56,958 nt of DNA from Candidatus Parcubacteria bacterium (GCA_027355945.1 DAIEHA010000006.1:1-56958); one strand, 5' to 3'; positions 2,005-56,958 are shown, numbered from the stretch's first letter. Notes: generated from the letters alone by a model not told the origin. Program-made: numbers and translations.

Positions 2005-3225
2005 TTAAAGTCCCACTTGAGGGCTGTGCGAGGAGGGCGCGCGGCCCTTTTCATCCTTCCCCGCACCGAAGAACCGTACATAGAGATAGAGATTCGCGGC
2101 CATGACGACGCCGTAGGCGACGAAGGGGATCTCAAAGAGCGCCGCATCGAGGAGATAGCCGCTGAGACCGGTCCCTGCGGAGGATGCGACGAGGCGGGCC
2201 ACCTGATTCACCCCGAGCGCCCTCCCGAGCTCATCGTCGTCCACGCGCCGCGTGAGTTCGGCTTGCTGGATGGGAATCGCCGCCACGCGGAGCGCGGGAC
2301 CGAAAAGATAGACGAAGACCGCGAAGGGAAGGTATCTCACGAACGGGAAAAGGACGAAGAGCACCGTACCGATTCCTCGCGTGACAAGCGTGCTTTTCAG
2401 GAATCCGAGCCATCGCTCGAGGAGCGGCGCCGCAAGGAGCGCGCACGATCCTATGATGCCGCTCAGGAAGGTGTATTCCGCCATCTGTGCCTTCGGGATG
2501 TGGTAAACGATGAGGAAGAAGGGGATGAGGAACGGGACGACGAGTCCTTGGGAAAGCCCGTTCAGCATCCCTGTGGCGCTGAACTTCCCGATCGTCGCTT
2601 TTGTTTTCAGCACGCGAAGCGCACCCTTCCGTTCCACCACCTCCACGAACCAAAGGAACGGTATGCCGGCGGCTGCGATCGCCGCGGCAACAAGGAACAC
2701 GTCCGTCGTACTGAACATCTTTACGAGGAGCGCCCCGCCCGCTCCCGCCGCGCCGGCGAGGAATGTGAAGAAGGAGAAATACGAAGTCCGTTTCTCTTTG
2801 GGGACGAGGTCCGTAAGCACCGCGTTCTGCACCGGTTGCACCGCGCCGCCTACGCCGCCCCCCGCGAGCGATCCTGTCGCAGAATAGCCGCCGAGCATCG
2901 CCGCCGCCACGATCATCCATAGGTTTCCCCGTACGAGCACGAAGAGCGCGCTTATCGGCAGGAGCGCGCTTGTGAGGATGAGCGTCCACCGTTTGCCCCA
3001 CGTGTCGGTCGTAATGCCAAAGAGGAAGCTCATGAGGGCCGTTGCGAGCGTGGCAGCGACATAGATGAGTCCGATCACGGATGGACCGTAATGAAGGTCT
3101 ACGAGGATGTAGTAGGGGAACGCTACATTGATCATTCCCGCAGCGACGCTTCTCACGATCCGCGATATGCCGATGAATGCGATCCCTCGCTTCCGGAGGT
3201 GTGCGGCGATGGCGGTATCCTTCAT
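2005..3225 (-). CDS. Major facilitator superfamily transporter
   Basis: About 12 hydrophobic segments; motif A-like [10 protein letters not shown]; D-x-ELGRALG in the C-terminal half. Start at 3225 overlaps the upstream stop (ATGA). Confidence 0.85.
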
Positions 3226-6200
3226 GCGTTGTTCCGGAGCGCCGCAAGTTCTTGGAGGAGTTTCAGGAGCTCTTCGTAAAGCGATGCGAGCAGCGCCTCG
3301 GCGGCGGCGCGGGACATCGTTCCCGTGCTTCCGTTCGCGGAGGATGTTCCGGCGGAAAGGTAGTTTTGCACGCTCCACCCGGTCGTGCCGCCCGCATAGG
3401 CGACCTCATACCAGGTATAGCCATCCCCCCTTACCGGTCCCGCAATGATCGTTCCCGGCGTCTCCGGGGGTTCCGTCCCTATCTTGGAGGAATAGACGGA
3501 ATGGGAGGAGCGCACATTGAGCCAGGAGGTGGTCATCGTCGAGGTCGTGTTCGGGGTGAGCGATACCGTTCCTATCGAAGATCCTCCCGCGTCGGACGAC
3601 GAGGTATTCGTTCCCGACGAGGCCGCCGCGCCCCCATATCCCGTTCCATATCCTGCTCCATATCCCGAGGATCCATAGGAGACGCCGGAATTTCCAGAGG
3701 ATCCTCCGCCATACGATACGCCGCTCGGATAGGAAGCACCTCCGCTGTTCGAACCTGTTCCCGATGAGCCCGATCCGGACGTCGTACCACTTGTGCCGTT
3801 ATTTCCCGTATTCGTGCCCGTGTTCGTATTCGTACCCGTACCTGTACCTGTATTTGTCCCCGTACCCGTACTTGTTCCCGTTCCCGTCCCTCCGTTCGAG
3901 GTCGTGCCGGAAGATCCGGTACCAGACCCGGATCCTGTGCCCGTGTTTGTCCCTGTGCCCGTATTTGTCCCCGTACCCGTGCTTGTTCCCGTGCCCGAAG
4001 ACGTTCCCGTTCCCGTCGATGTCCCCGTTCCGGAAGATGTTCCCGTGGAGATCTGCGCCGCAAGGAATGCCGCAACGGCATTTGATTGCTGATCGGGCGA
4101 TGCCGATGTTGCGGTGACGGCAACCGTGCCTGCGGAAGCCGCTACCCCTTGGACCGTCGTGAAGTTCCCGATAATCCCGTCATCGATCACCTTCGTGAAT
4201 CCTGCTGCAGGGTTTATGGGTTCCGTGCCGTTGTTGCCCTGGAACGCGGCAAAAAGGAGATCGCCCGGAGCATGCGTGGTGACGCTTCCCGAGGTCCATG
4301 ATGCCGATGCCGTCGATTCGGTATCGGACGTCGCCGTCCCGTCGAGGGGGGCGGTCTTTGCGATCCCGGAATATTCCTGCAATGCGAGGATGTTGTATTG
4401 GTTCATGCCGGCGAACGTACAGGAGACCGCATCGGTGCCCCCTTTCACATTCGTCGCATACCAAATGTCCGTTCCAAGCCCCTTCGTGTTGTTGATGGCA
4501 TGCACCGCTTCGGTGAAGGTGTCTCCAAGGGTGTCCGTGCATCCGGTCACCTGATCCGAGGTGCCGCCGTACTCGAGTCCTACGATGATGGCATTTCCCG
4601 CGGCCACAGGATACGAAAAACTTCTTCCGATGTTCGCATACGAGGCCGCTCCCGATGCTTCCGAGGTGTTGTCCGTCGCTTGCACGAGCGTTATCGCTGC
4701 GGTGGCGGTGGACCCCGAGGGCGAGGTGCTCGTGGGTGCCGGGGCGGGCGTCGGGGAGGAAGAGGATTGCGTGGTTGCGGATACTGCTGCGGATTGCGAG
4801 GATACGTTCCCTGCGGCATCGTATGCGGCCACGCGATAGAGATACGAGGTTCCCGCGTTAAGACCGGTATCGGAATATGAGGTGTTCGCAATGGCCGCGA
4901 TCTGCGTCCCGTTGCGATAGACCTGGTATCCCTGCACGCCTACATTGTCGGTCGAAGGGTTCCATGAAAGATCGATCTGCTGCGTTCCGGCGGCGGTCGC
5001 AATAACGCCGGTCGGGACCGAGGGCGGCGTCGTATCGGGCGCCGGGGGGTTCGAGGGTGTCCCGGATCCCGCGTTCGAAGTTCCATAGCAGGAAGATGCA
5101 TCGAAGGCGAGCGCGTTGCCGCTCACGCCGTCCGGCGGGCCGTTCATGATGTTCAGATAGCAGTATTGCGCGGGGATCGCATACACGTGGCCTGACCATG
5201 CGGAAGCGTTGAATGGAGCTCCTGCGCATTGCGATGCCGATGTTGCGGGAAGGCCGTTATATTGTCCCGCCGCGTTGAGCGTGCCGCTGCACTGCCCTAT
5301 GTTGCCTCCGGAGACATCGGGGCCGATCGCGGGGAAGGGGATGGATGAGGGCCACCAGCTCGGCGCTCCGCTCAGATAGAACGATGCCGGGAGCGCGGTC
5401 GAGGCGGGGACGGAGTTCGGATAGACGGCGATGCTGCTCGGCACCTCGGAGGTGTTCATGCAGATGCTCGACCATCCTGGATCGGAGGAATTGCCGCACC
5501 AATGCGTCGCTCCGGTGCCGATATCGAAGTTCCCCCAACGGAGGAGCGTCGCTCCGGTGACCGGATCGAAGGGGATGGCGGGAGAGGCCCCTGCGTTCCC
5601 GTCCCCGACGATGTATGCCGCATCGAAATTGCCGTAATACTCCGCAGAGGACTCCGAATAATTCGTGGTGACGCCCGGGGTGCCAAGCACGTTGCCGATG
5701 AAGTTGCTGTAGCGGTTGTACCCGAGATCGGCGATGGCGATCGTTCCGGCATCCTTCGCGGTATAACTTCCGCAATTGCCGTTGGCGCATGATTCCCATC
5801 CGGTGAAGAAGTTGCGGAAGGCGGTGATCATGAGGTGGGTGCCATGGACGTCGTCCTCGTTCAGGTAGGTGCCCACATTGCCCTCGTACAGGTCGTAATC
5901 GTCGCCGTTCGAATGTTGCCAGTATGCGCCCCATACGTAATCCGAGAGGTCATATTGGTTGATGCAGAGGTTGTAGGCGGTCACGTCGCCCACGGCAGGC
6001 CCTTCGCCATTCGCAACGCATACGCGTGACTTCTGGATGATATTGTTCTGAATGAGGTTGTCCTCGCCTTGGCTGTCCTTGATGCCCCACGGATCGCAGG
6101 CATAGCCGCCCCCTTGGCACGTCATATTCTGTCCCATATCGAAGATATAGTTGTTCTGGATCGTGGCGTGCGCGGCGTCGGAAAGCCATATGCCGATCAC

Positions 6201-7205
6201 GTCCGGATGGATGATGCGGACGCCTTGGACCCAGGAGTTCCATGTGTTCGCGAATCCAATGCCATCGACGTCATTCGTCCCGGATCCATCGATCGAAAGG
6301 TTTTCGATCCCCACATTCTCCGACGGCTGGATCACCCAGGCCTGGGGCGTCTGCGCCGCGTTCCAGTTCGGATGGATGAGGCCGGGGGTTATGGTCATCG
6401 TCACCGGTCCCGTGCTGTTGCATGAGGGCGTGCAGGATACCGCCTGGACGATCTCCGATTGGAAGCGGTGCGGGCGACCGAAGCTTCCATCGGGGCCCGG
6501 ATAATCGCAGCCGGTCGATCCGTTGTACAGGTCGCTGCAGTTGAAATAGTTTCCATTGTCCACCGACGATCCGGCGCAGGGGGACCCTGAATATCCCGTG
6601 TCGCATTGGTCGAGGACGATCATGGTCGATCCCGGCACGATGACGGCCCCGGGAAGCCCGTTCGGGAAGGTGATCGAGGTTGCCCCTTTCGCGCCCCCGT
6701 TCCAGTTGTATGCCGCCGATATCCCTCCGGGGTATGTTCCATCGCTGCTCTCGAACCCTATGAGCGTGGTCCCGGCCCCTTCCTGGCAGTTCGCCGGCGA
6801 TGAGAAATCGAGGAACGTGGCGTTCGCTCCCGAACCCCGCAGTTCGACGTTGTTCGCCCCTTGGACGCAGATGCCGGTGCTCAGGTGATATGTTCCCGGA
6901 CCGAGCAGCACATAGGTATCGGCCGGAGCGTTCCTCAAGGCCGTCACTATCTGCGATGCCGTGACCGACGTGCCCGCAGCGGTCACCGTCGCACAGTACG
7001 AATTGGTGCATTGGGCCCATGAGGCGCTTGGGATCCCGCCCGTGACGCCCGCCTGGCTCCAATCGGCACCGCGGTTCGCGCTCAGGATCCCCGTCCACGG
7101 GGTCGCCGCTTCGGCCCTTGGCGTCGCGTAGAGGAATATCGCTCCGGCGATCGCCATCCCTCCCATTGCAGCAAGTCCTACCCAACGCGATTTTTTATAA
7201 TGCAT
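3222..7205 (-). CDS. Large secreted protein (1327 aa): right-handed beta-helix/pectin-lyase-like region, FN3, G/T/S-rich linker, SH3b-like domain, C-terminal amphipathic helix
   Basis: N-terminal signal/TM; beta-helix-like repeats ([35 protein letters not shown]); FN3 [11 protein letters not shown]...[23 protein letters not shown]...[26 protein letters not shown]; SH3b-like WLNVRS...[18 protein letters not shown]. Confidence 0.75.
3790..4050 (-). repeat. Low-complexity coding repeat (GT/GS/TN)n linker
   Basis: Encodes [35 protein letters not shown]...; degenerate 6-nt periodic DNA repeats. Confidence 0.85.
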
Positions 7206-9932: not shown

Positions 9933-10937
9933 TCACTGGTCCTCTTCCTTGCGGGCGTGGTCGGTGGCGCGCGCATCCACCTCGTAGGAGGTGTTCTGGG
10001 CCTCGAAGAAATTCACGAGTTCAAGGACGTCGGTCGCGCCGCTCATCCATTTTGCGGGGTTCTTCGCGCCGTAATGGGCGCCGATGCCAAGCTCTTCGAG
10101 GCGCCGGTCGGCGACGTATTGCACGTACTGATTCACATAATCCGCATTGAGTCCGAGGATGCCACGGGGGAAAAGGTCCTTGTTGTAATTCACCTCGAGG
10201 TCCACGCCTTGTACGACGATGTTCTTGATCTCTTCGGCGAACTCGCGCGTGAGGATCTCGGCGTTCTCTTCGAGGATGTTCTGGATGAGATTCATGCCGA
10301 ACTTGAGATGGAGCGATTCGTCCCGAAGCACCCAATTGATGAGCGATCCAAGGTTGCGAAGCTGGTTTCTTTGGCGGAACGAGAGCACCACCATGAAGCC
10401 GCTGTAGAACCAGACGCCCTCCATCACGATGTTCGTTGCGACGAGATTGCGGATGAAGTCCTTCTTGCCCTCCGAGGTCGCTACGTCGAGCGTATCCTCT
10501 GTCATGCGCTTCATATAACGGTTGATGTAATCCTCCTTCGCCCTCATTGAGGGGATGTTCGTGTGAAGGCTGAATGCTTTGTCGCGATCGATGGGGAAGG
10601 TCTCGAGCACATATTCGAAGGCGACGCAGTGGTTCGCCTCCTCCCACATCTGCTTCGCAAGGTAGAGGTGGCACTCGGGAGATTTGAGATACGGATAGAT
10701 GCCGAGCGCGATCGAGCGGTTCACGATGAGTTCTGCGGGATTGAAGAACGAGATGAGGAATTCCACCGCGTGGCGCTCGTCATCCGTCATCTTCTCCCAA
10801 TCGAAGAGATCCTCCTTGAGCGCGATCTCATGGGGGAACCAGGTGTTGCGCACCGCCTGGTTATAGAGGTCGTATGCCCATTGGTAGCGGATGGGGTGGA
10901 TGTTCATGTCCTCGGGGGACGCTTTTCCTATCAGCAT
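9933..10937 (-). CDS. nrdB: Ribonucleotide reductase small subunit R2 with class Ic signature
   Basis: FFNPAE69LIV, E99E100ANH103CVAF107, MEGVWFYSGF, RDESLH, C-terminal NFFE...Y. The ORF-track extension upstream of 10937 overlaps nrdA and is spurious. Confidence 0.93.
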   Translation of the reverse strand: MLIGKASPEDMNIHPIRYQWAYDLYNQAVRNTWFPHEIALKEDLFDWEKMTDDERHAVEFLISFFNPAELIVNRSIALGIYPYLKSPECHLYLAKQMWEEANHCVAFEYVLETFPIDRDKAFSLHTNIPSMRAKEDYINRYMKRMTEDTLDVATSEGKKDFIRNLVATNIVMEGVWFYSGFMVVLSFRQRNQLRNLGSLINWVLRDESLHLKFGMNLIQNILEENAEILTREFAEEIKNIVVQGVDLEVNYNKDLFPRGILGLNADYVNQYVQYVADRRLEELGIGAHYGAKNPAKWMSGATDVLELVNFFEAQNTSYEVDARATDHARKEEDQ

Positions 10938-11007
10938 ATCTATGGTTGTGTTCGTTTGTTGGGAATAGGGGATCTGGGGATATCGTACGAGCGGGGATCG
11001 TGCTCGA

Positions 11008-13644
11008 TCATTGGCAGCTGTCGCAGACGAGATCGGCCTGCGGGTCCGAAGGAGGCATGATACGCGATTCCCTCCGTGTTGCCGGCTGCGGTTCCGTATG
11101 GGAGGGATGCGATTCCGCGGCCTTCGTGCGGAACGCCGCCTCGCGGATCTCCACATCCGGTGTCCCCGTGAATGAGGCGACCGCGGTCGTGGCGATAGCG
11201 GTGGCGGGCGCCACGGCATTCGTTCGTGCGGGAGCCATTGTTTCCGCGGACATCTCCGCCGCGGCGTGCATCACTGCGGCAAAGCCCCGCTTGCCCATCG
11301 CCTCGGCCTTGTTCACGTGCACCGTGCTCTGCTCGGCGGTGTGGCGCGGCTTCATATGGAGGTAATAGGTCGTCTTCACGCCCTTCTCCCATGCCGACAT
11401 GTAGATATCCATGGTCTCCCCGATGTCCCTTGTCTCGAGATACATGTTCCGGGAAAGGGCCTGGTCGATCCACTTCTGGGCCCGCGCTGCGACCTCGATG
11501 AACGCGTAGGGTGACGTGCTGAACGATGTCTTATAGATATCCCGGATGTGCGGGGGTATCTCGCTGATCGCGGTAATGTCCCCTTGCTCTGCGATGATGC
11601 GGTCCTTCACTTTGTCCCATATCCCCAGGTTTTTAAGGTCGTTCGCGAGGTTATGATTGAGATCCATGTATTTTCCCGAGATCTTGTTGCGGGAGAATAC
11701 CTGCGCAAAGCGGGGGTCGATGCCCGGCGTCGTTCCCGCAACGAGGCCGATGTTCGCATTGGGCGCCACGGCCATCAATGTGGCGTTCCGCATGCCCTTT
11801 CTCACCTTTTCCCTGAGTTCGTCCCAGTGGAGTCCTTTATAATGGTGGGATTTGTCCACGGTGAGCTCCTTCCCGCGTTCCGCCTCGAGCCGTTTGATCG
11901 AATCGATGGGGACCATTCCTTTCGACCATCCCGACCCTTTGAAGTTGGGATATGCACCGCGTTCCGCCGCAAGGTTCGCGCTTTCGTCGATAGCCACATA
12001 GCTTACGAACTCGAACATGCGGTCCGCAAAATCCCATGCGTGGGGACTGTCGTAAGCCATGCCGAGCTGTTCAAGCACGTCGGCGAACCCCATCACGCCG
12101 AGGCCTATGGCCCGGTTCTCTTTATCGGCATGTTCCGCTTCGGCGATGGGGAGCTGATTGATGTCGATCAGATCGTCCAGCTGGCGCACCGCATAGCGGA
12201 TGCTTTCCTCGAGCCGTTCCCAGTCCACCTGCTTATGGTGCACATGGGCCGCAAGATTGAGGGATGCGAGATTGCAGACGGCGATATTCTCCCGGTCCTG
12301 CGGAAGGCATATCTCCGTGCAGAGGTTCGACATATGGATCGTGCCCGTGTTGTTGTTGAGCGCCCGAAGATTGATGGGGTCCTTCCAGGTGAGCCATGGG
12401 TGCGAAGTGGTCTGGAGCGCCACGAGGATCTGGCGGAACTGCTCTTCCGCCGGGACCTTCTTGAATACGCGGAGCTCGCCGCGCTCCGCTTTTTCGATGT
12501 ATTCCGCATAGCGTTTACTGAACGCTTTGCCGTAAAGTTCCACGAGGTCCGGCGTCTCCTTGGGGTCGAACATATACCAGATCCCGCCCTCCTTCACCCT
12601 GCGCATGAACTCATCGGTCATGAATACAGCGGTGTCCGCCGTGCGCATGCGCATATAGTCGTCTCCCGCATTGTGCTTCCAATCTATGAACTCCGGGAAA
12701 TCGAGATGCCAGTTCTCCATATAGAAACAGAGCGCCCCCTTCTTCTTCCCTCCGCGCTGGATCGCGCGGATGGCAGTATCGATTATTTTCGCAAACGGGG
12801 TTGGGCCGCTCGAGGGGGTGTTGTTCGAGGAGAGGGGAGAGCCCGTGGCCCGCAGCTTCGTCACCGATGCGCCTATGCCTCCGGAGGCTTTGGAGAGCAT
12901 CATGACGTCCGCGACCGATTTTGCGATGTGCGCCATATCGTCCTCGATCTGCATGAGGAAACAGTTTGAAAGCGAGGGGCGCGTGGTCCCGGCCCCGATA
13001 TTCGTCGAGCCTCCGGAAATATACTCATGGCGCGACATTTTCTCGTAAAAGCGCTTTGCCCAAAGGGAGGGATCTTTCTCGTTGAATGCGAGGCCCATTG
13101 CGACGCGCATGAAGAAATACTGGGGTGTTTCGTACGCCTCTTCGTTCTTGTCCTTGATCGCATAGCGATGGAGGAGCGTATCGAGGCCGCTGTAGAGGAA
13201 TATCTCATCTCGTGCGATATCGAGCGCGCCTGCGAGCGCTTTCAGGTCGAACGTGCCGAGCATGCGGGCATCAAGAAGGCCCTCTTCCACACCTTTTTTG
13301 ACCCAGCCCGGGAACATATCCCGATGTTTTTTACGGAGCACCTCCTCATCGTTATCGTATTCGCCGATCACGCGGCGATATACGGTCTTCAAAAGCAGCC
13401 GAACCGCCACCTTATCGTATTCGATATCCTCTTTTATATTCTGCACCGCGGCATTGATCGTTGCCCGGTCCATCTCTTCCGTGGTGATGCCATCGTAGAG
13501 GGTGAGGCGCGTTTCCGTGGCGATCTGCGTGACCATGCTGATGGGATCCTGGAGCCCTTGGCATGCGCGTTCGATCGAACGATTGATCTTGTCGGCATTG
13601 AACGGCTCCCGCGTGCCGTCCCGTTTGGTGATGGTGAGTTCCAT
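11008..13644 (-). CDS. nrdA: Ribonucleotide reductase large subunit (class I alpha) with N-terminal ATP cone
   Basis: ATP cone ITKRDGTREPFNADKI; SNCF; SNLCTEI (thiyl Cys); APNANI; KTTYYL; C-terminal CDSCQ. Confidence 0.95.
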   Translation of the reverse strand: MELTITKRDGTREPFNADKINRSIERACQGLQDPISMVTQIATETRLTLYDGITTEEMDRATINAAVQNIKEDIEYDKVAVRLLLKTVYRRVIGEYDNDEEVLRKKHRDMFPGWVKKGVEEGLLDARMLGTFDLKALAGALDIARDEIFLYSGLDTLLHRYAIKDKNEEAYETPQYFFMRVAMGLAFNEKDPSLWAKRFYEKMSRHEYISGGSTNIGAGTTRPSLSNCFLMQIEDDMAHIAKSVADVMMLSKASGGIGASVTKLRATGSPLSSNNTPSSGPTPFAKIIDTAIRAIQRGGKKKGALCFYMENWHLDFPEFIDWKHNAGDDYMRMRTADTAVFMTDEFMRRVKEGGIWYMFDPKETPDLVELYGKAFSKRYAEYIEKAERGELRVFKKVPAEEQFRQILVALQTTSHPWLTWKDPINLRALNNNTGTIHMSNLCTEICLPQDRENIAVCNLASLNLAAHVHHKQVDWERLEESIRYAVRQLDDLIDINQLPIAEAEHADKENRAIGLGVMGFADVLEQLGMAYDSPHAWDFADRMFEFVSYVAIDESANLAAERGAYPNFKGSGWSKGMVPIDSIKRLEAERGKELTVDKSHHYKGLHWDELREKVRKGMRNATLMAVAPNANIGLVAGTTPGIDPRFAQVFSRNKISGKYMDLNHNLANDLKNLGIWDKVKDRIIAEQGDITAISEIPPHIRDIYKTSFSTSPYAFIEVAARAQKWIDQALSRNMYLETRDIGETMDIYMSAWEKGVKTTYYLHMKPRHTAEQSTVHVNKAEAMGKRGFAAVMHAAAEMSAETMAPARTNAVAPATAIATTAVASFTGTPDVEIREAAFRTKAAESHPSHTEPQPATRRESRIMPPSDPQADLVCDSCQ

Positions 13645-14206: not shown

Positions 14207-16054
14207 ATGGAATTCGTGAAGCGGCATAGGAATAGTGCGGCAATCGGTATCGTAGTAGTCGTGTTATTTGCCGCATTCTTTCTTTTCTTCTTTCGCAGAC
14301 ATCCTACTGCGTTTGCCGGTTTGCCGGATCATGCCATCTCGCGTTTGGAGGTATTGCCGGCTGATGCTGCACGCGGCACGGAATCCGGGAGTGCCGACGA
14401 TCCTTTCAAGGGATCCGATATCCTTGGAAATGCGTCTTCCGATGAGGCAATGCCCTCTTTTGCCGTAAATGGGCTTGATGCGATTTCTCAGTTTGCCGCT
14501 TCCGATGTTTTGCCGGTCTCTCCTCATGCATCTTCGGGACCCGATTCCGGATTATCATCGATTGCCGCAGTACCTCCTCCATATCCCAATATCTCTGTAT
14601 CCGATCTTTCGGCTGGTGCATCCTCTTCTTCTCTCTTGTCCTCCTCCTCCCTTCCCGCCGAGGTTCATCTATGTCCATTCCCGTACGCATCGTCCTCGAT
14701 CCCTTCATCCTCGAGACCCGTGATCATAAATGAGGTCGCATGGATGGGTTCTCCCTCTTCTTCGTTGCGGAGCGGTCTTGTTTCCGGCAACGCGGAATGG
14801 ATCGAATTGAAGAACGTCTCAATGGGAGCCATTTCACTTGAGGGATGGAGTTTCCTCGATGCGGCAGGAAAGATGCGGATTCCTATGCCGGACGATGCCT
14901 ATCTCGATTCCGGTGGGTTCCTCCTTCTTGTACGCGGAAGCACCACCTTTCCATATTCACGCGCACGGGAGGTTCCTTATACGGGTATTTTGAGAAATTC
15001 CGGCGATGACCTTGCGCTTATGGATCCTTCCTGTGCGGCCTCCGATCGTGTCTTTGCCGGTGATGGTTGGCCTGCGGGAGATGCCGCGGCGAAGCACACG
15101 ATGGAACGTGATGCCGATGGGACATCTTGGCATACGAGCGTAGGGATCGGAGGGACGCCAGGAGGAGAGAATTCCGTTTCGATGGAGCATGTGTATTACG
15201 AGGCTGTGATCCATCTTGCTGGCTCCGGCGGTGCATCAATAGCGAGCGATCCTTCGGGAATCGCATGCAATGACGGAGTTCGATGCATCGGTTCGTATCC
15301 AGCAGGAACCAAAGTGAAACTCAAGGCGTTACCCGCCCCGGGCACCTTGTTCGGAGGATGGTCTGGTGCGTGTTTCGGCATCGGTTCATGCAGTTTTATG
15401 GTTGTGGGACCTACTGATATCACTGCCTCTTTCCACTATCCTGAATCTCCCTCTTCATCCGAAGCCGGTGATATATCCTTGCATTCTTTGTCCCATTCTT
15501 CCTCTTCTTCGGTCCCCGGCGAGGCCATCATCGCCGATCCATCGCGTTCCGCGTCCTCATCCTCATCATCGCCTTCCGGGACATTTTCAGGGCGTATTTC
15601 CATTGCTGCGGTGCAGATTGCAGGGGAAAGATCCTCGGATGATTTCGTAAAGATCTACAACGCATCAGGATCCGCCATCGATCTTGGAGGGTGGAAGTTG
15701 AAAAAGCGGTCATCCACGGGTGCAGAATACTCCCTTCGCACCTTTCCCGAAGGGACCTCCATTGCTTCCCACACCTATTTTATATGGGCCAATTCCGAGA
15801 ATGGCTTTTCTGCATCCCTTGCCGCCGATTCCTCGAGCACGGAGACGATTTCTGCTGATAACAGCATCGCCTTGCTCGATCCCGAGGGGAAGGTGGCAGA
15901 TGCTCTTGCGTGGGGTTCGGGAAAGGGACAATTCGGGGAAGGGAACCCGTTTCCTTCAAATCCGGGACCCGGTCAAGTCCTTTCCCGCATATTTTCAGAT
16001 CCGAGCGGACCGGTCGATACGGGCGATAATGCAAACGATTTCCTGCTTCATTGA
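14207..16054 (+). CDS. Membrane-anchored protein with two lamin-tail domains and an InlB B-repeat-like domain
   Basis: N-terminal TM; LTD1 VIINEVAWMG...EWIELKN...ISLEGWSF; LTD2 ISIAAVQIAG...DDFVKIYN...IDLGGWKL...DTGDNANDF; B-repeat-like SDPSGIAC...YPAGTKVKLKALPAPGTLFGGWSGAC. Confidence 0.8.
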   Translation: MEFVKRHRNSAAIGIVVVVLFAAFFLFFFRRHPTAFAGLPDHAISRLEVLPADAARGTESGSADDPFKGSDILGNASSDEAMPSFAVNGLDAISQFAASDVLPVSPHASSGPDSGLSSIAAVPPPYPNISVSDLSAGASSSSLLSSSSLPAEVHLCPFPYASSSIPSSSRPVIINEVAWMGSPSSSLRSGLVSGNAEWIELKNVSMGAISLEGWSFLDAAGKMRIPMPDDAYLDSGGFLLLVRGSTTFPYSRAREVPYTGILRNSGDDLALMDPSCAASDRVFAGDGWPAGDAAAKHTMERDADGTSWHTSVGIGGTPGGENSVSMEHVYYEAVIHLAGSGGASIASDPSGIACNDGVRCIGSYPAGTKVKLKALPAPGTLFGGWSGACFGIGSCSFMVVGPTDITASFHYPESPSSSEAGDISLHSLSHSSSSSVPGEAIIADPSRSASSSSSSPSGTFSGRISIAAVQIAGERSSDDFVKIYNASGSAIDLGGWKLKKRSSTGAEYSLRTFPEGTSIASHTYFIWANSENGFSASLAADSSSTETISADNSIALLDPEGKVADALAWGSGKGQFGEGNPFPSNPGPGQVLSRIFSDPSGPVDTGDNANDFLLH

Positions 16055-19944: not shown

Positions 19945-22900
19945 ATGAAAAAAATCGCTTTAGTCGGTTTTGTTTTTGTTTTCTTTGCGGGGATGCACGG
20001 GATCGTCCATGCGGCGCTTGCCCCGACGCAGTGCGCCACGGTTGGCACTCCGTTCGCGACCATCACCCAACATATCACAAACGATCCTGATTCGGGTGTT
20101 CCGGGAACGTGGGCGATCGATGCGTTCACGGAGCATGTGAACGTGTGGCTCGATACTGATGGGGTGACCTATTGTGCGAGTGCCAGTACGACGGATGGGA
20201 CATTCGTCACGACGGGGCCCTCTTCCCCGGAAAAGAGTACGCCGCTCGCGGCGGGGATCACCGGTACGTTCACCGGAGGAGAGACCTACGTGATTCCTGG
20301 CACTTTCGCGCTTTCCGGGAACTACAGCACATCTTCCCCGAAATCGGTGACCCTGCCCGACAGTTCGACGGCAGGATTCTCCTGGTGGGTCAATGAGATG
20401 TTCCCTTCCATATCCACAAGCAGCGGTTCAAGCTACGTCACCACCTATTCGCTCACCTATGTGACGCCGAATGACGGTATATGGACCGATAGTTCCGGCG
20501 GCGACCATGGGGATATCGGTCCTGCGGTGAATATGAGGACGAACACGGGATATTCCACCATCCAGGAGGCGGTGGATGCGGCAGCGCCCGGCGATACCAT
20601 CGATGTCGCTTCCGGGATCTATCCGGAAACGGTGTCGATCGACAAGAGCCTCACTTTGAATGGCGCCCAGACCGGTGTTCCCGGGGCGAGCGCGAACTTC
20701 GTTCCGCGTCTCGGTCAGGAATCCGTCGTTGATGGCATGAATATCTCGACGAACGGGGTCGCGGTGAATGGATTCACTTTCATCAATCCGGGAAGCCAGA
20801 TGAGCATCAATTCATCCACCATACTTTCCGGCGTGAGCATCCAAAACAATATCTTCACCGGATATTCAAGCGTGGGCATGCCGACCGACAATGCGGGAAA
20901 CCTGCTCATTGAAGGAAACCTGTTCCATGATCCCGCCTCCAACGCCGAGCCGATGCAGATAAAGGCGGATGGAACGCTCGGGGGATGCAACGGGACCCAG
21001 GTGGTGCATAACGTCTTCATGGGAGCGTCCAATAACGGCGGTGCCGATATCAACTTCTCCTGTACGGGGAGCCATTCCTCGAACATCACCGTCTCCGGCA
21101 ATGCGGACAACGGAAACACGAACGAGAGCAGTTTCGCGGCGTTCTCCGGGATTACGGATGGCATTACGGTCACCGATAATCATGCGACCGGCATAAGTGG
21201 GTCCGCGCTCTTTTTCTGGGGCGATGTTTCGGGCACCGCTGCCGTCACGGGGAACGTCATCACCGGAGGACAGGGCAGCGGGGTGAGCATCCATGGCAAT
21301 GACGCGTATGGTACGCCGGATGCCCCCAATTCAGGGACTTTCACGATCACCGGCAACGATCTTTCCGGCAATTTGCGAGGTGTATACCTTGGTGATGACG
21401 GTGGCGCGTTCACGTCGTCCGCCATGATCGATCTTTCCGGCAACGATCTTTCCGGGGAAGGTAGCGCAGGCGTAGAGAACTCTTCGAAAGTGATCACTGC
21501 TGCGAACGTGAATGCTTCCGGGAACTGGTGGGGAGCCTCCACTGGACCTTTGGATGCCGTTTCGGGCGATGGAAGCATCCCCGATATGAACGCAAGCGGG
21601 ACCGGATCGCCGGTCATCGGCGCAGTGAAGTATTCCGGATGGTGCACGAACTCCTATTGTGATATGACGCCTCCCTCGCTCGTATACAACGCGCCGACGG
21701 CGATCGTCATGGTAAGTTCCACACTTTCCGTTTCGGTGACTGCGCGCGACGGGCAGACCGGGATCTCGAGCGTCTTCGTTGATGCGTATGACGCGAGCGG
21801 CACCTATCTCGGGTCCTGCGGGTCTGGTGCCTCCGCTCTTCACGGAGCGTCGAGCTACACCTATGACTGCAATCTGGATGTCTCCTCATACCCTGACGGC
21901 ATGTATGCATTGCGCGCGAACGCGGAGGACATTGCGGGTAATACGACGACCGTGCCGATGGCGTTTGCCGTGAGCCATGAGGCCGTGATCATTCCTCCTC
22001 CCGTGCTTGCATGGCCGGTGAATGGGGATATCACGCCTACCAACGTGTTCACGTTCCGGTGGAATCCCACCACAAGCCCCATTCCGGGCCCCATGTCGTA
22101 CGAATTCCATTCGACCATGAATCCCGCAGAAACGAACGGCGTGCTTACGACCGGACTTTGGAATTCTGGAAAGCTCTCCACCACATCCATTCTTTCGAGC
22201 GGCGCACCGAACGGGATATGGTACTGGCAAGTGCGCGCCATCGATCCGGCAGGCAACGAGAGTCCCTGGAGTGACGTATGGAACGTCAGGCTCAATACCG
22301 TTCCTCCGCCGGCGATCGCGGCATGTCCCGCAGGAACGAAACAGGTATTCGTGGAATCCGACACGGTCGATTCGAAGGACCCTGCTCCCACCGTGGGCTC
22401 GACGACGCTTGCCGACGGACAGACATATCTTCTCGTGGCGTCGGGTACCTGGCAGAATGGCAGCATCAATGCAGCCGATGCCGCATATGCGAGCGTGGAC
22501 GATTGGAGCACGTACATGCAGGGATATTCCATAGGAGCCGCACAACTTGGATCCGGGGAATTCCAGCTCCAGGTCGGCGGTTCGTTCGTTGATTGGGGGG
22601 CGTATCAGCCGAGCCATCAGTATTCCTATCTCTATACCGCCACGGGCCAGCCACTGAGCCTCATGGTATTCGATGGGAATTCCTCGACCTCTCTCCCGAC
22701 GCCGAATCCTTCCTGGTACGGCGATAATGTGGGAAGCCTTGCGGTCAATGTATATGCGTGCCAGGCACCGGTCTTCGTAACGACCGAAACCGCAACGGGC
22801 ATAGGCCAGACGGACGCCACCTTGAACGCAATGAACGGTGATTATGGCGCGACGGGGCATTCATTCTGGGTCTCCACATCGACGTTCAGCACCGCAAGCC

Positions 22901-23865
22901 CCGTCATACCCGCAGGCGTCTATTCGACCCCTGATTTTGGCGCGATCGCATCGGATACGCCATTCTCCGCCACGCTTTCGTCTCTTGCGACGAGCGCGTA
23001 CGTATACGGGCAGAAGCTCGGCGTCATGCCCGGCGTGCAGCCCGGAACCACGTATTATTACGTGGCGTGGTCGTTTGTGAACGGTACGTGGCATCCGGGA
23101 GCAATGCGGTCACTTACGACCGCCGCGCTCGGCAGCAACGATACCCTCGCCGCGCTCGGCGTATCGGCAGGGGTGCTTTCACCTGCGTTCGATCCCGGGA
23201 CTGCGTCGTATGAGGATGTGCTTCCCTACAATACGACGATGGTACCCCAGGTGCAGGCCACATCCTCGGATCCGAATGCGACCGTGAGCATCGTGCAAGC
23301 CACAAGCACGGGAGGGACCGCGATCGTGACGGTGACGGCGCAGAACGGGTTCTCCATAGCGACCTATACCGTCTCGTTCTCTGTCGCAGCGCCGACCGTC
23401 AGCATGCTCACGGTCAAGGTGATCGTGAATAACGGTTCCGAAGGGACTGCGATTCCATCCGATTTCATGGTGAAGGTATTCGGAAGGGACGTAAGTTCCT
23501 CGACCTTCCCCGGAAGCGCCGATGGGGTCACGGTCACGCTCGAGCCCGATACGAATTTCGGGGTGAATGTGATCGAATCCCATGACCACTATACCCAGGG
23601 ATTCAGCGGGGACTGCCACGATGAAAGCGGTCTTCCTCCGGGAAATTCCGCGACGTGTACGATCACTGAGACGTACAATTCCGACGAGCCTTCCCTCGTC
23701 GTGATCGTCGGCGGGGGATCGTTAGGGAACCATGGGGGAGTCGTCCTTGGCGCGAATATCAGCGGCAATGCCGCACTTGAGGAGCAGGTCCATGCGCTTC
23801 AAGAGGAACTCATTGCGCTCCTCGAGCAATATCTTACGTTCCTCCATTCACCGGGAAGCCATTAA
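19945..23865 (+). CDS. Large secreted surface protein (1306 aa): beta-helix region, Ig/FN3-like domains, cadherin-like beta-sandwich, prealbumin-like domain, C-terminal heptad
   Basis: Signal peptide MKKIALV...VHA; YSTIQEAVDAAAPGDTIDVASGIYPETVSIDKSLTLNGAQ (pectin-lyase-fold start); YALRANAEDIAGN; WYWQVRAIDPAGNESPWS; SNDTLAALGVSAGVLSPAFDPGTASY (cadherin-like). Confidence 0.75.
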   Translation: MKKIALVGFVFVFFAGMHGIVHAALAPTQCATVGTPFATITQHITNDPDSGVPGTWAIDAFTEHVNVWLDTDGVTYCASASTTDGTFVTTGPSSPEKSTPLAAGITGTFTGGETYVIPGTFALSGNYSTSSPKSVTLPDSSTAGFSWWVNEMFPSISTSSGSSYVTTYSLTYVTPNDGIWTDSSGGDHGDIGPAVNMRTNTGYSTIQEAVDAAAPGDTIDVASGIYPETVSIDKSLTLNGAQTGVPGASANFVPRLGQESVVDGMNISTNGVAVNGFTFINPGSQMSINSSTILSGVSIQNNIFTGYSSVGMPTDNAGNLLIEGNLFHDPASNAEPMQIKADGTLGGCNGTQVVHNVFMGASNNGGADINFSCTGSHSSNITVSGNADNGNTNESSFAAFSGITDGITVTDNHATGISGSALFFWGDVSGTAAVTGNVITGGQGSGVSIHGNDAYGTPDAPNSGTFTITGNDLSGNLRGVYLGDDGGAFTSSAMIDLSGNDLSGEGSAGVENSSKVITAANVNASGNWWGASTGPLDAVSGDGSIPDMNASGTGSPVIGAVKYSGWCTNSYCDMTPPSLVYNAPTAIVMVSSTLSVSVTARDGQTGISSVFVDAYDASGTYLGSCGSGASALHGASSYTYDCNLDVSSYPDGMYALRANAEDIAGNTTTVPMAFAVSHEAVIIPPPVLAWPVNGDITPTNVFTFRWNPTTSPIPGPMSYEFHSTMNPAETNGVLTTGLWNSGKLSTTSILSSGAPNGIWYWQVRAIDPAGNESPWSDVWNVRLNTVPPPAIAACPAGTKQVFVESDTVDSKDPAPTVGSTTLADGQTYLLVASGTWQNGSINAADAAYASVDDWSTYMQGYSIGAAQLGSGEFQLQVGGSFVDWGAYQPSHQYSYLYTATGQPLSLMVFDGNSSTSLPTPNPSWYGDNVGSLAVNVYACQAPVFVTTETATGIGQTDATLNAMNGDYGATGHSFWVSTSTFSTASPVIPAGVYSTPDFGAIASDTPFSATLSSLATSAYVYGQKLGVMPGVQPGTTYYYVAWSFVNGTWHPGAMRSLTTAALGSNDTLAALGVSAGVLSPAFDPGTASYEDVLPYNTTMVPQVQATSSDPNATVSIVQATSTGGTAIVTVTAQNGFSIATYTVSFSVAAPTVSMLTVKVIVNNGSEGTAIPSDFMVKVFGRDVSSSTFPGSADGVTVTLEPDTNFGVNVIESHDHYTQGFSGDCHDESGLPPGNSATCTITETYNSDEPSLVVIVGGGSLGNHGGVVLGANISGNAALEEQVHALQEELIALLEQYLTFLHSPGSH

Positions 23866-55578: not shown

Positions 55579-55614
55579 GATGCATGAGGCCCCTCCAAAG
55601 GGGCCTCATGCATC
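55579..55614. terminator. Perfect 16-bp hairpin between convergent genes
   Basis: GATGCATGAGGCCCCT-CCAA-AGGGGCCTCATGCATC; no U tract. Confidence 0.6.
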
Positions 55615-55623
55615 GCAGCGGCG

Positions 55624-56355
55624 TCATGTGGCCGCTTCCTTTTCGAATGTTTTCGCGATCGGGTCGAAATCGCCCTCCAATATCTTCTCGATATTGTGCC
55701 ATTTCTTGCCTATCCGATGATCCGTGATGCGATCGTCCGGGAAGTTGTACGTACGGATCTTTTCCGAACGATCCCCTGAACCTATCTGTTCGCGGCGCAT
55801 ATCGGTGATACTTCCGGTTGCCCTCAATTGCTCGATCTCATAGAGTTTCGCGCGGAGGACGTCCATCGCCTTTTCACGGTTCGCATACTGGGAACGTTCC
55901 TCCCGGGAGGCCACGACAATGCCGGTCGGCTTGTGAAGGATGCGTACCGCGGTCTCCACCTTGTTCACGTTCTGCCCTCCCGGGCCGCCGGCGCGGGAGA
56001 AGGTGACCTCGAGATCGCCGTCCGCAATGCGCACCTCCCTTGCCTCCACGATCGGAAGGATCGCAACCGATGCGGTCGAGGTGTGTACCCGGCCGGATTT
56101 TTCCGTTACAGGAATTCGTTGGACGCGATGCACGCCGGATTCGTTCCGGAACGCATCATAACACCCTTCCCCCCTTACCTCTGCAACGAGGTGCTTGTAG
56201 CCCTGGCCGTTATCATTTGCATCGAGTATGGAAAAGCTCCAGCCGCGTTTTGCGGAATACCGCTGATACATGCGCGCAAGATCGCCCACAAAAATGGACG
56301 CTTCGTCGCCTCCTGCGCCCGCGCGTATTTCCATGATGATCTTATTGGTGGTCAT
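55624..56355 (-). CDS. prfA: Peptide chain release factor 1, N-terminally shortened (243 aa)
   Basis: [25 protein letters not shown] (PxT = RF1), [22 protein letters not shown]. Confidence 0.9.
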
Positions 56356-56451
56356 AGACTGGACTATCCTAGCATATCGCAATGATTATGAAAAATTTGA
56401 ACACATGGGGGGGTCCTGAGCCTATGTGTGGAGTGGAAATAGTCGAACGAT

Positions 56452-56499
56452 AAAAAAAGGACCTTCTTCGCGCCGCGATTGCGGGCAATGAAGGTCCTT
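56452..56499 (-). terminator. Terminator of the partial gene upstream of prfA
   Basis: AAGGACCTTC...GAAGGTCCTT stem followed by a T run on the minus strand. Confidence 0.6.
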
Positions 56500-56513
56500 G
56501 GATAAATCTGTTG

Positions 56514-56958
56514 TCAATGAGCGTCTTTGTCCGGCGGGGGAAGTGCCGGTCCGGTTGCGGCCGCGCTTGCGCTCGCGCCGGAGTCGGACTTCGAGTTGCT
56601 GACGCTCGAGCTTGAACTCGAGCTCTTGCTCTGGCTCTGGCTTGCGCTTGAGCTCGAACTCGAGGCATTGCCGCCATCGGCCTTTGCGGTCACGTTGCCG
56701 GCGTTCGAAACGCTTGCACCCCCTCCCTGCTGGGAAACGTTGATGCCGGCGACGTTCTGATAGGCCATGCCCATCGAGAACCCCGTAGCATCGACCATGT
56801 GATCTAAAAGCTGCCACAGGTGGTCGTGCTTCAGATAGCCGGCCCTCATGTTCGTGAGGTTGGCATCCGCCGCCATCGCGTTTTTCCGCAATGGCAGAAG
56901 ACCTTCCTCCGTGGTTGCCTTCGCTTCCGTGAGTCTCGCATTCGCCCTGATCGCTTCG
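56514..56958 (-). CDS. 3' part of a hypothetical protein with Ser-rich tail (starts outside the window)
   Basis: Frame stays open to the window edge (EAIRANARLTEAKATTEEGLLPLRKN...); Ser-rich C-terminus. Confidence 0.6.
   Translation of the reverse strand, partial: EAIRANARLTEAKATTEEGLLPLRKNAMAADANLTNMRAGYLKHDHLWQLLDHMVDATGFSMGMAYQNVAGINVSQQGGGASVSNAGNVTAKADGGNASSSSSSASQSQSKSSSSSSSVSNSKSDSGASASAAATGPALPPPDKDAH

Follow-up and report, generated by a model that had tools for sequence, protein, structure and literature searches.

Loss of the N-terminal domain 1 from release factor 1 in a Candidatus Parcubacteria bacterium and its relatives in the CPR

Our analysis of a 56,958-nt stretch of DNA from Candidatus Parcubacteria bacterium (the window) identified a prfA gene coding for a release factor 1 (RF1) of 243 aa from which the whole N-terminal domain 1 is missing. 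The loss of this domain is real, widespread and conserved, and it is not an artefact. The protein is a natural variant of RF1, whose lack of the N-terminal domain is shared by hundreds of relatives in the CPR, and CPR cells with such an RF1 seem to end translation with a minimal factor. Judged from its residues, nothing is missing from the module that reads stop codons and brings about hydrolysis, and selection on it is strong. We consider it likely that this gene is the housekeeping prfA, that stepwise erosion of the 5'-end has cut its product down to domains 2-4, and that termination proceeds without RF3. Domain 1 normally couples RF1 to RF3, the GTPase that recycles it. To our knowledge, the RF1s and RF2s characterised to date possess this domain, which is the only part of these proteins known to contact RF3 and the L11 stalk.

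The prfA locus and the identity of its product

The gene, the parts of its product and the flanking elements are located in the window as follows.

55624..56355, minus strand: prfA coding sequence for a 243-aa RF1 without domain 1 (ATG at 56353-56355, TGA stop at 55624-55626)
56065..56349, minus strand: C-terminal half of PCRF (Pfam PF03462), residues 3-97, comprising codon-recognition domain 2 and the first strand of domain 4
56302..56313, minus strand: GGDE, the tip of helix alpha-5; G15 and E18 correspond to G116 and E119 of T. thermophilus (alignment to 4v4r_AY)
56104..56112, minus strand: PVT tripeptide 'anticodon', residues 82-84 (DNA read directly, cctgtaacg)
55714..56037, minus strand: RF-1 (GGQ) domain 3, residues 107-214 (Pfam PF00472)
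55972..55980, minus strand: GGQ catalytic motif, residues 126-128 (DNA read directly, ggagggcag; invariant)
55738..55770, minus strand: switch-loop region and start of domain 4, residues 196-206 (alignment to T. thermophilus RF1; invariant columns)
56452..56499, minus strand: intrinsic terminator of the unrelated preceding gene, with a 10-bp outer stem, an inner stem and U7
56514..56958, minus strand: 3'-end of the unrelated preceding gene (276 aa in full, Ser-rich tail; no Pfam family)
55580..55615, strand not assigned: perfect 16-bp hairpin GATGCATGAGGCCCCT-CCAA-AGGGGCCTCATGCATC between prfA and the convergent NUDIX gene, likely a bidirectional terminator

The open reading frame (55624..56382, minus strand) would yield 252 aa if read from a TTG; the conserved ATG at 56355, which the window gene has in common with its relative L001 (MSTNK...), yields 243 aa. 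An AGGA located 11 nt 5' of this ATG is only a weak Shine-Dalgarno candidate, and a promoter scan found no sigma-70-like promoter in the 158-nt spacer (56356-56513) between prfA and the preceding gene. A first-pass annotation of this DNA had placed about 160 nt with a terminator and the end of an unrelated gene upstream of prfA. This agrees with the length of the spacer, with the 276-aa gene and with the hairpin between the two genes, which has a folding energy of -30.3 kcal/mol (z -6.18) that was equalled by 0 of 200 shuffled sequences. No homologue of the 276-aa gene was found beside prfA in the other loci compared.

The protein carries the PCRF and RF-1 domains and scores higher as RF1 than as RF2. 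Only positions 99-194 of the 194 positions of the PCRF profile were matched (E 7e-41), the RF-1 profile was matched at positions 4-116 of 116 (E 5e-38), and the helical N-terminal domain of about 100 residues is missing, 5 residues preceding the first strand. Alignments to RF1 chains in the PDB start at residue 85 of T. maritima, 106 of T. thermophilus and 111 of E. coli, and the NCBIfam prfA model TIGR00019 was aligned at positions 112-348 of 361, the start in the RF1 equivalog models lying at 104-112. The earlier statements that the entire domain 1 is missing and that the protein begins about 110 residues into an ordinary RF1 were thus borne out, and the PVT, GGQ and C-terminal motifs described as intact are all present in sequence and alignment. 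The curated whole-protein cut-offs of the equivalog models were not reached (341.2 against 423.25 for TIGR00019 and 348.1 against 400 for NF001859), a shortfall that matches the missing domain 1.

All decoding and catalytic positions checked against T. thermophilus RF1 are kept, namely G15/E18, Q79, PVT 82-84, H91/T92, GGQ 126-128 and the switch loop. The checked positions are invariant over 50 sequences in which truncated and full-length RF1s are mixed (alignment A1), including the GGDE tip of helix alpha-5 and both P82 and T84 of PVT. For the helix-5 tip G/E, Q181 and H193/T194 (T. thermophilus numbering) we assume the roles known from RF1-ribosome structures; those of the UAA/UAG-reading residues were reportedly worked out by Laurberg et al. 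in 2008. The tip of helix alpha-5 with G15 and E18 presumably reads U1 of the stop codon. An AlphaFold model of the 243-aa protein reached a pLDDT of 84.9. Its best Foldseek matches are ribosome-bound open forms of RF1 (7m5d_A with TMq 0.83 and rmsd 3.0 Å over 240 columns), and the compact RF1 crystal forms fit the model less well.

Other members of the release factor family were rejected as identities. RF2 (prfB) would require SPF instead of PVT, and the prfB model TIGR00020 gave 221 against a cut-off of 370, compared to the higher 341-348 bits of the prfA models. For PrfH the score was 77 against 166.65 (TIGR03072), the PVT is kept, and the gene immediately upstream is not rtcB but codes, depending on the locus, for the 276-aa protein, an aldolase or RpmE. 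For ArfB it was 54 against 100 (NF006718) with only residues 105-140 matched, and full domains 2 and 4 are present.

Distribution and graded shortening of the N-terminus

An identical protein is encoded on 6 contigs from at least 5 assemblies, which rules out the mis-assembly that the first-pass annotation had considered as a source of the missing 5'-end. Three copies compared as DNA (L081-L083) differ from the window by 0-1 nt, and 4 of the 5 loci shown include upstream sequence, either with the whole 276-aa gene (GCA_021834065.1, ERZ27236853, ERZ27236866) or with its end (GCA_021834505.1). The best 120 homologues are all 235-254 aa long and 80-93% identical, some being encoded on contigs of 0.5-0.9 Mb, and in 116 of them 4-6 residues precede the IxEIRAG of the first strand. 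Those that bear a name are called either 'PCRF domain-containing protein' (Paceibacterota/Minisyncoccia) or, by JGI, 'peptide chain release factor 1'. Altogether more than 230 short homologues were found, which fall into two families.

Nine GTDB species representatives with a truncated RF1 of 65-85% identity (L001-L009) were compared at the 5'-end of the gene. An in-frame stop lies 2-25 codons 5' of the ATG in 8 of them; in the ninth, L004, the frame is open for 77 codons upstream of the ATG through junk-like sequence. A tblastn search with 60 domain-1 queries through all frames of the window and the flanks (about 10 kb) of the nine relatives detected no remnant of a domain-1 coding region, every match having an E of at least 0.15, which supports the earlier claim that the missing part does not reside in another frame. 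The prfA genes of the window and of L001 differ with a dN/dS of 0.104/1.64, i.e. about 0.06. The notion of a mis-assembled, wrongly started or decaying gene draws on nothing but the unusual length of prfA, and recurrence in independent assemblies, more than 230 short homologues in two families, upstream in-frame stops, the low dN/dS and the confidently predicted fold leave it with a practically negligible probability.

Several entries among the homologues are of a different kind. In P0121 and P0123, 477-481-aa 'RF1' proteins from the 50%-identity library, about 120 residues are exactly duplicated internally; these are most likely assembly artefacts, which appear at the top of the match list because each matches twice. 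P0141, P0197 and P0212 are not short RF1s either, since their 5'-cut open reading frames run into PrmC or ABC genes, and they were set aside as assembly or gene-calling artefacts.

The lengths of RF1 in the CPR, a survey of which had been proposed in the first-pass annotation, form a graded series with about 112, 78, 66, 52, 31, 24 and 5 residues before the core:

Non-CPR RF1: 109-121 residues before the core, PCRF profile start 2
Some CPR RF1: 94-107 residues
Most Paceibacteria RF1: 74-84 residues, PCRF profile start 36-37
P0308 group: about 66 residues, PCRF profile start 41
L047: 52 residues, PCRF profile start 69
P0135: 31 residues, PCRF profile start 72
L019 and L010: 24-27 residues, PCRF profile start 96-100
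Window clade: 3-8 residues, PCRF profile start 99

This series indicates that the erosion runs from the 5'-end. In a neighbour-joining tree (numpy distance routine, 200 bootstraps) rooted with non-CPR RF1s, the window clade is nested within CPR RF1 and is monophyletic in 190 of 200 bootstraps (95%). A second large family, Portnoybacteria where named and referred to here as Portnoy-type, comprises RF1s of 231-246 aa that are 56% identical to the window protein and stands apart from the window clade in 167 of 200 bootstraps; relatives 77-79% identical to these short RF1s keep about 66 N-terminal residues. L019, with its 24 residues, is nested among forms with 77-83 residues in 199 of 200 bootstraps. 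Assuming that domain 1 was never regained, its complete loss therefore took at least two events, one in the window clade and the other in the Portnoy-type clade, and under the same assumption the sequences point to a strong reduction on several further occasions. Stepwise erosion of the 5'-end thus ran repeatedly in the class Paceibacteria.

Two further features of these proteins were noted. The C-terminal tail after the G(D/N)(L/F)(D/E) anchor measures 12-19 aa in truncated RF1s compared to 23-33 aa in non-CPR RF1s, and the C-terminal helix may have been lost together with domain 1. In the window the tail comprises the 16 C-terminal residues (55624-55671), and the conserved ...DQ.E.L..L helix is missing in the truncated forms. 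The cores of the window, L001-L080 and P-series proteins were compared for net charge over their first 225 residues: all CPR RF1s lie at about +5.6 to +9.4 and full-length non-CPR RF1s at about -1.1; the CPR core is hence about 7 charges more basic, whatever the length of the N-terminus. This could be a compensation for weaker stalk contact or a mere lineage-wide effect of composition.

Orthology to prfA and termination without domain 1

More than 50 loci, among them those of cyanobacteria, of ordinary Paceibacteria and of truncated forms, have rpmE (L31) as the immediate upstream neighbour of prfA in the same orientation. The shorter domain 1 is, the closer rpmE lies to the RF1 core, with distances of about 450-590 nt in full-length forms, 230-390 nt in forms with about 78 N-terminal residues, 106-181 nt in intermediates and 0-143 nt in truncated forms. 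The order rpmE-prfA is kept in the truncated relatives L004, L009 and L149-L155. In the window copy rpmE is not adjacent to prfA, a local rearrangement also seen in L081 and in L002/L003/L005; positional orthology is therefore established in the relatives and only inferred by descent for the window gene. In the Portnoy-type loci L149 (10001), L150 (10001-10004), L151 and L152 the stop codon of rpmE overlaps or adjoins the start codon of prfA (ATGA), an arrangement that suggests translational coupling of L31 and RF1.

The 23 Pfam-supported genes of the window end with TGA in 12, TAA in 7 and TAG in 4 cases. The standard code is hence in use and a reader of UAG is needed. A tblastn search with the RF1 core as query detected no second release factor gene in the 57-kb window, in 80 genome loci of 20 kb or in the loci added later. 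No conserved partner gene was found; the neighbours of prfA vary and include an unknown protein, a class II aldolase, rpmE and a lytic transglycosylase. SecA and SmpB, possible neighbours of prfB, are absent from all loci examined. Another observation concerns the Portnoy-type locus L149, in which yceG instead of rplA-rplK lies upstream of rplL and rplJ (4362-6469), so that the usual L11-L1-L10-L12 cluster is broken. An approximate E. coli L11 sequence used as tblastn query against the loci matched only one non-CPR locus.

On these grounds the window gene is most likely the housekeeping prfA orthologue rather than an extra paralogue, because it is nested in CPR RF1, its relatives occupy the rpmE slot, its dN/dS is about 0.06 and UAG is in use. 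The first-pass annotation had left two options, a natural minimal class I release factor or a specialised paralogue. The former is well supported by the conserved domain 2-4 module, the rpmE-adjacent relatives and the clades in which all members are truncated. A specialised protein beside a full-length prfA, acting in ribosome rescue or in a restricted set of terminations, would have precedents in the short relatives PrfH and ArfB, both specialists, and would fit the scores under the curated RF1 cut-offs. We nevertheless regard it as quite improbable. The checked decoding residues are conserved, unlike in PrfH or ArfB, and the scores for these two families lie well under their cut-offs (77 versus 166.65 and 54 versus 100). 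A conserved partner is lacking, the short gene sits in the ancestral rpmE-prfA slot in relatives and is nested among graded intermediates, purifying selection is strong, the genomes are reduced (about 0.8 Mb), and a second release factor is absent from the 57 kb studied here and from 35 CPR loci. Still less probable is a split gene whose separate domain-1 polypeptide joins the core in trans. Domain 1 is described as a flexible, loosely attached module in PMC1586002, which would suit such an arrangement, but neither the window nor the flanks of nine truncated genes (about 10 kb) contain any domain-1-like sequence, the gradual shortening (about 78, 66, 52, 31, 24, then 5 residues) resembles erosion instead of fission, and the C-terminal tail has been shortened too.

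For the housekeeping minimal RF1 the following course of termination can be proposed. In sequence and model, all checked elements that serve entry into the A site, reading of UAA and UAG, the switch from the closed to the open form and placement of GGQ in the peptidyl-transferase centre are kept. As all checked decoding elements are retained, the factor would be expected to release peptides at UAG and UAA like any RF1. Since no domain 1 is available for the L11 stalk or RF3, it would have to dissociate from the ribosome unaided by RF3, on its own or in the course of recycling by RRF and EF-G, and the missing stalk contact could by itself make dissociation faster. The lineage probably lacks RF3, which may have been lost or have become irrelevant in Paceibacteria; domain 1 would then have had no selective value and may have drifted and been trimmed by shifts of the start codon.

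Studies in E. coli bear on this proposal. As summarised in PMC1586002 (citing Mora et al. 2003), no domain of the release factors is less conserved than domain 1; factors deprived of it still show codon-specific release in vitro, E. coli RF1 truncated in this way functions in vivo, and stimulation of RF3 requires domain 1. According to the same source, prfC is not essential and small genomes lack it. Without RF3, E. coli RF1 is slow to leave the ribosome while RF2 exit is spontaneous, and L11 is in the RF1 binding site (PMC5995542); in PMC3988563, RF1 dissociation is reported to be about 500-fold faster with RF3-GTP. Older work quoted in PMC1586002, in a review comment by Tate, found E. coli RF1 to be inactive on ribosomes lacking L11, and the stalk contact may therefore matter more than 'dispensability' suggests. 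It can be speculated that the unusually basic domain 2-4 core offsets the lost stalk contact and preserves on-rate and affinity. Many bacteria lacking RF3, such as Mollicutes, keep domain 1, so the loss of RF3 alone does not force the loss of this domain.

In the supplementary gene table of a Nealsonbacteria-like genome of the Paceibacteria, the rows listed include prfB (969 nt), a prfA fragment and prmC; K02837 (prfC) is not among these rows, which is weak evidence. Our search found no literature linking prfC with CPR. Domain 1 could also have been lost with RF3 still present, the latter acting on RF2 only or without contact to domain 1, and the truncation having another cause, for instance an altered L11/L7-L12 stalk, a quicker turnover or a general shortening of proteins in the CPR. 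CPR proteins are indeed generally shorter (PMC9297842), a broader change in how RF1 interacts with the ribosome is hinted at by the basic core common to all CPR RF1s, and rplJ-rplL of L149 is not preceded by rplK-rplA. We nonetheless judge this to be unlikely, because stimulating RF3 is what domain 1 is best documented to do, and neither a paper linking prfC to CPR nor, as weak evidence, K02837 in the rows listed of the one Paceibacteria annotation table was found. Somewhat less doubtful, though still tentative, is an extension of RF3-free termination to the Paceibacteria as a whole, in which RF3 would be gone, domain 1 of RF1 and perhaps of RF2 would decay in parallel, and the basic core, possibly with an altered L11/L7-L12 stalk, would take over. 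If true, one of the largest radiations of bacteria would naturally terminate translation in a cycle that depends on neither RF3 nor the stalk.

Comparison with known factors and further observations

Domains 2-4 of the window protein are 43-47% identical to those of canonical RF1 (TIGR00019 / PRK00591; 4V63, 7M5D, 1RQ0). Both have the PxT, GGQ, helix-5 tip and switch loop in common, the predicted fold corresponds to the open ribosome-bound form, and the rpmE-prfA order is shared with relatives of the window protein. In contrast, canonical RF1 possesses a domain 1 of roughly 105 residues, a longer C-terminal tail (23-33 versus 12-19 aa) and a core that is about 7 charges less basic. RF1s with a short domain 1, such as that of T. 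maritima (342 aa) and those of most Paceibacteria (312-344 aa), have about 78-85 residues before the core with a PCRF start of about 36 and thus retain a helical N-terminal domain, whereas the window protein retains 5 residues.

PrfH or RF-H (TIGR03072; 7SA4, 9MOR) is likewise a natural class I release factor homologue without domain 1 that has kept GGQ. It differs in its altered 'anticodon' motif and decoding surface, while the window protein has the canonical PVT and the other checked residues. PrfH always follows rtcB and acts in rescue or repair; no rtcB is found near the prfA of the window. The GGQ domain is also common to ArfB, ICT1 and mtRF-R, the alignment being limited to residues about 102-140. 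These factors are devoid of domains 2 and 4 and end in a basic tail, whereas the window protein has a codon-reading domain. The basic tail of ArfB-type factors probes the empty mRNA channel.

The nearest functional analogue would be the laboratory RF1-deltaD1 of E. coli. The engineered domain-1 deletions of E. coli RF1 and RF2 (Mora, Zavialov, Ehrenberg & Buckingham 2003, via PMC1586002) have the same architecture of domains 2-4. In the account given in PMC1586002, these constructs perform codon-specific release in vitro, RF1-deltaD1 is active in vivo, and stimulation of RF3 is lost. They are artificial and reside in a cell with RF3, whereas the form described here, known from sequence, has been naturally fixed in whole clades; it additionally has a short C-terminal tail and a basic core, which may be compensatory.

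We found no description of a natural RF1 without domain 1 in the literature, from CPR or elsewhere, although individual short RF1s, labelled RF1 or PCRF, can be found in public databases from about 2016 onwards. As a conserved RF1 of this kind occurs naturally in a large group, it offers a test of what domain 1 does. An evolved and presumably optimised minimal RF1 would be better suited than laboratory deletions for biochemistry and cryo-EM. Furthermore, the graded series and the independent losses can be compared against changes in prfC, prfB, rplK and rRNA.

The truncation also has consequences for annotation. Homologues such as P0012, P0077, P0106, P0119, P0330 and P0353 bear the NCBI name 'PCRF domain-containing protein' because they score under the TIGR00019 and NF001859 cut-offs. 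For the same reason, marker pipelines using TIGR00019, which we believe to be part of the GTDB bac120 set, would count RF1 as missing. This would slightly bias completeness estimates and marker trees of the CPR.

A scan of IMG/VR yielded only phage release factor genes with an identity of 50% or less. Among these, L090, L091, L093, L094, L098, L100, L105, L111, L114, L118 and L095 contain short RF1-like frames of about 196-235 aa, mostly with PPTE or PDTE replacing PxT, with GGQ present and domain 1 seemingly missing; the frames were cut at all three stops, and those of recoded phages may thus look too short. Elsewhere in the window, two proteins about 1300 aa long, of which one has a single fn3 match and the other no Pfam match, and a Lamin-tail-domain protein (3222-7205, minus strand; 19945-23865, plus strand; 14207-16054, plus strand) look like typical large CPR surface proteins. 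The longest open reading frames of the small and large subunits of ribonucleotide reductase (9933-11219 and 11008-13644, minus strand) overlap by about 210 nt. The Pfam match of the small subunit begins at residue 105, and its real start therefore probably lies downstream of the listed one.
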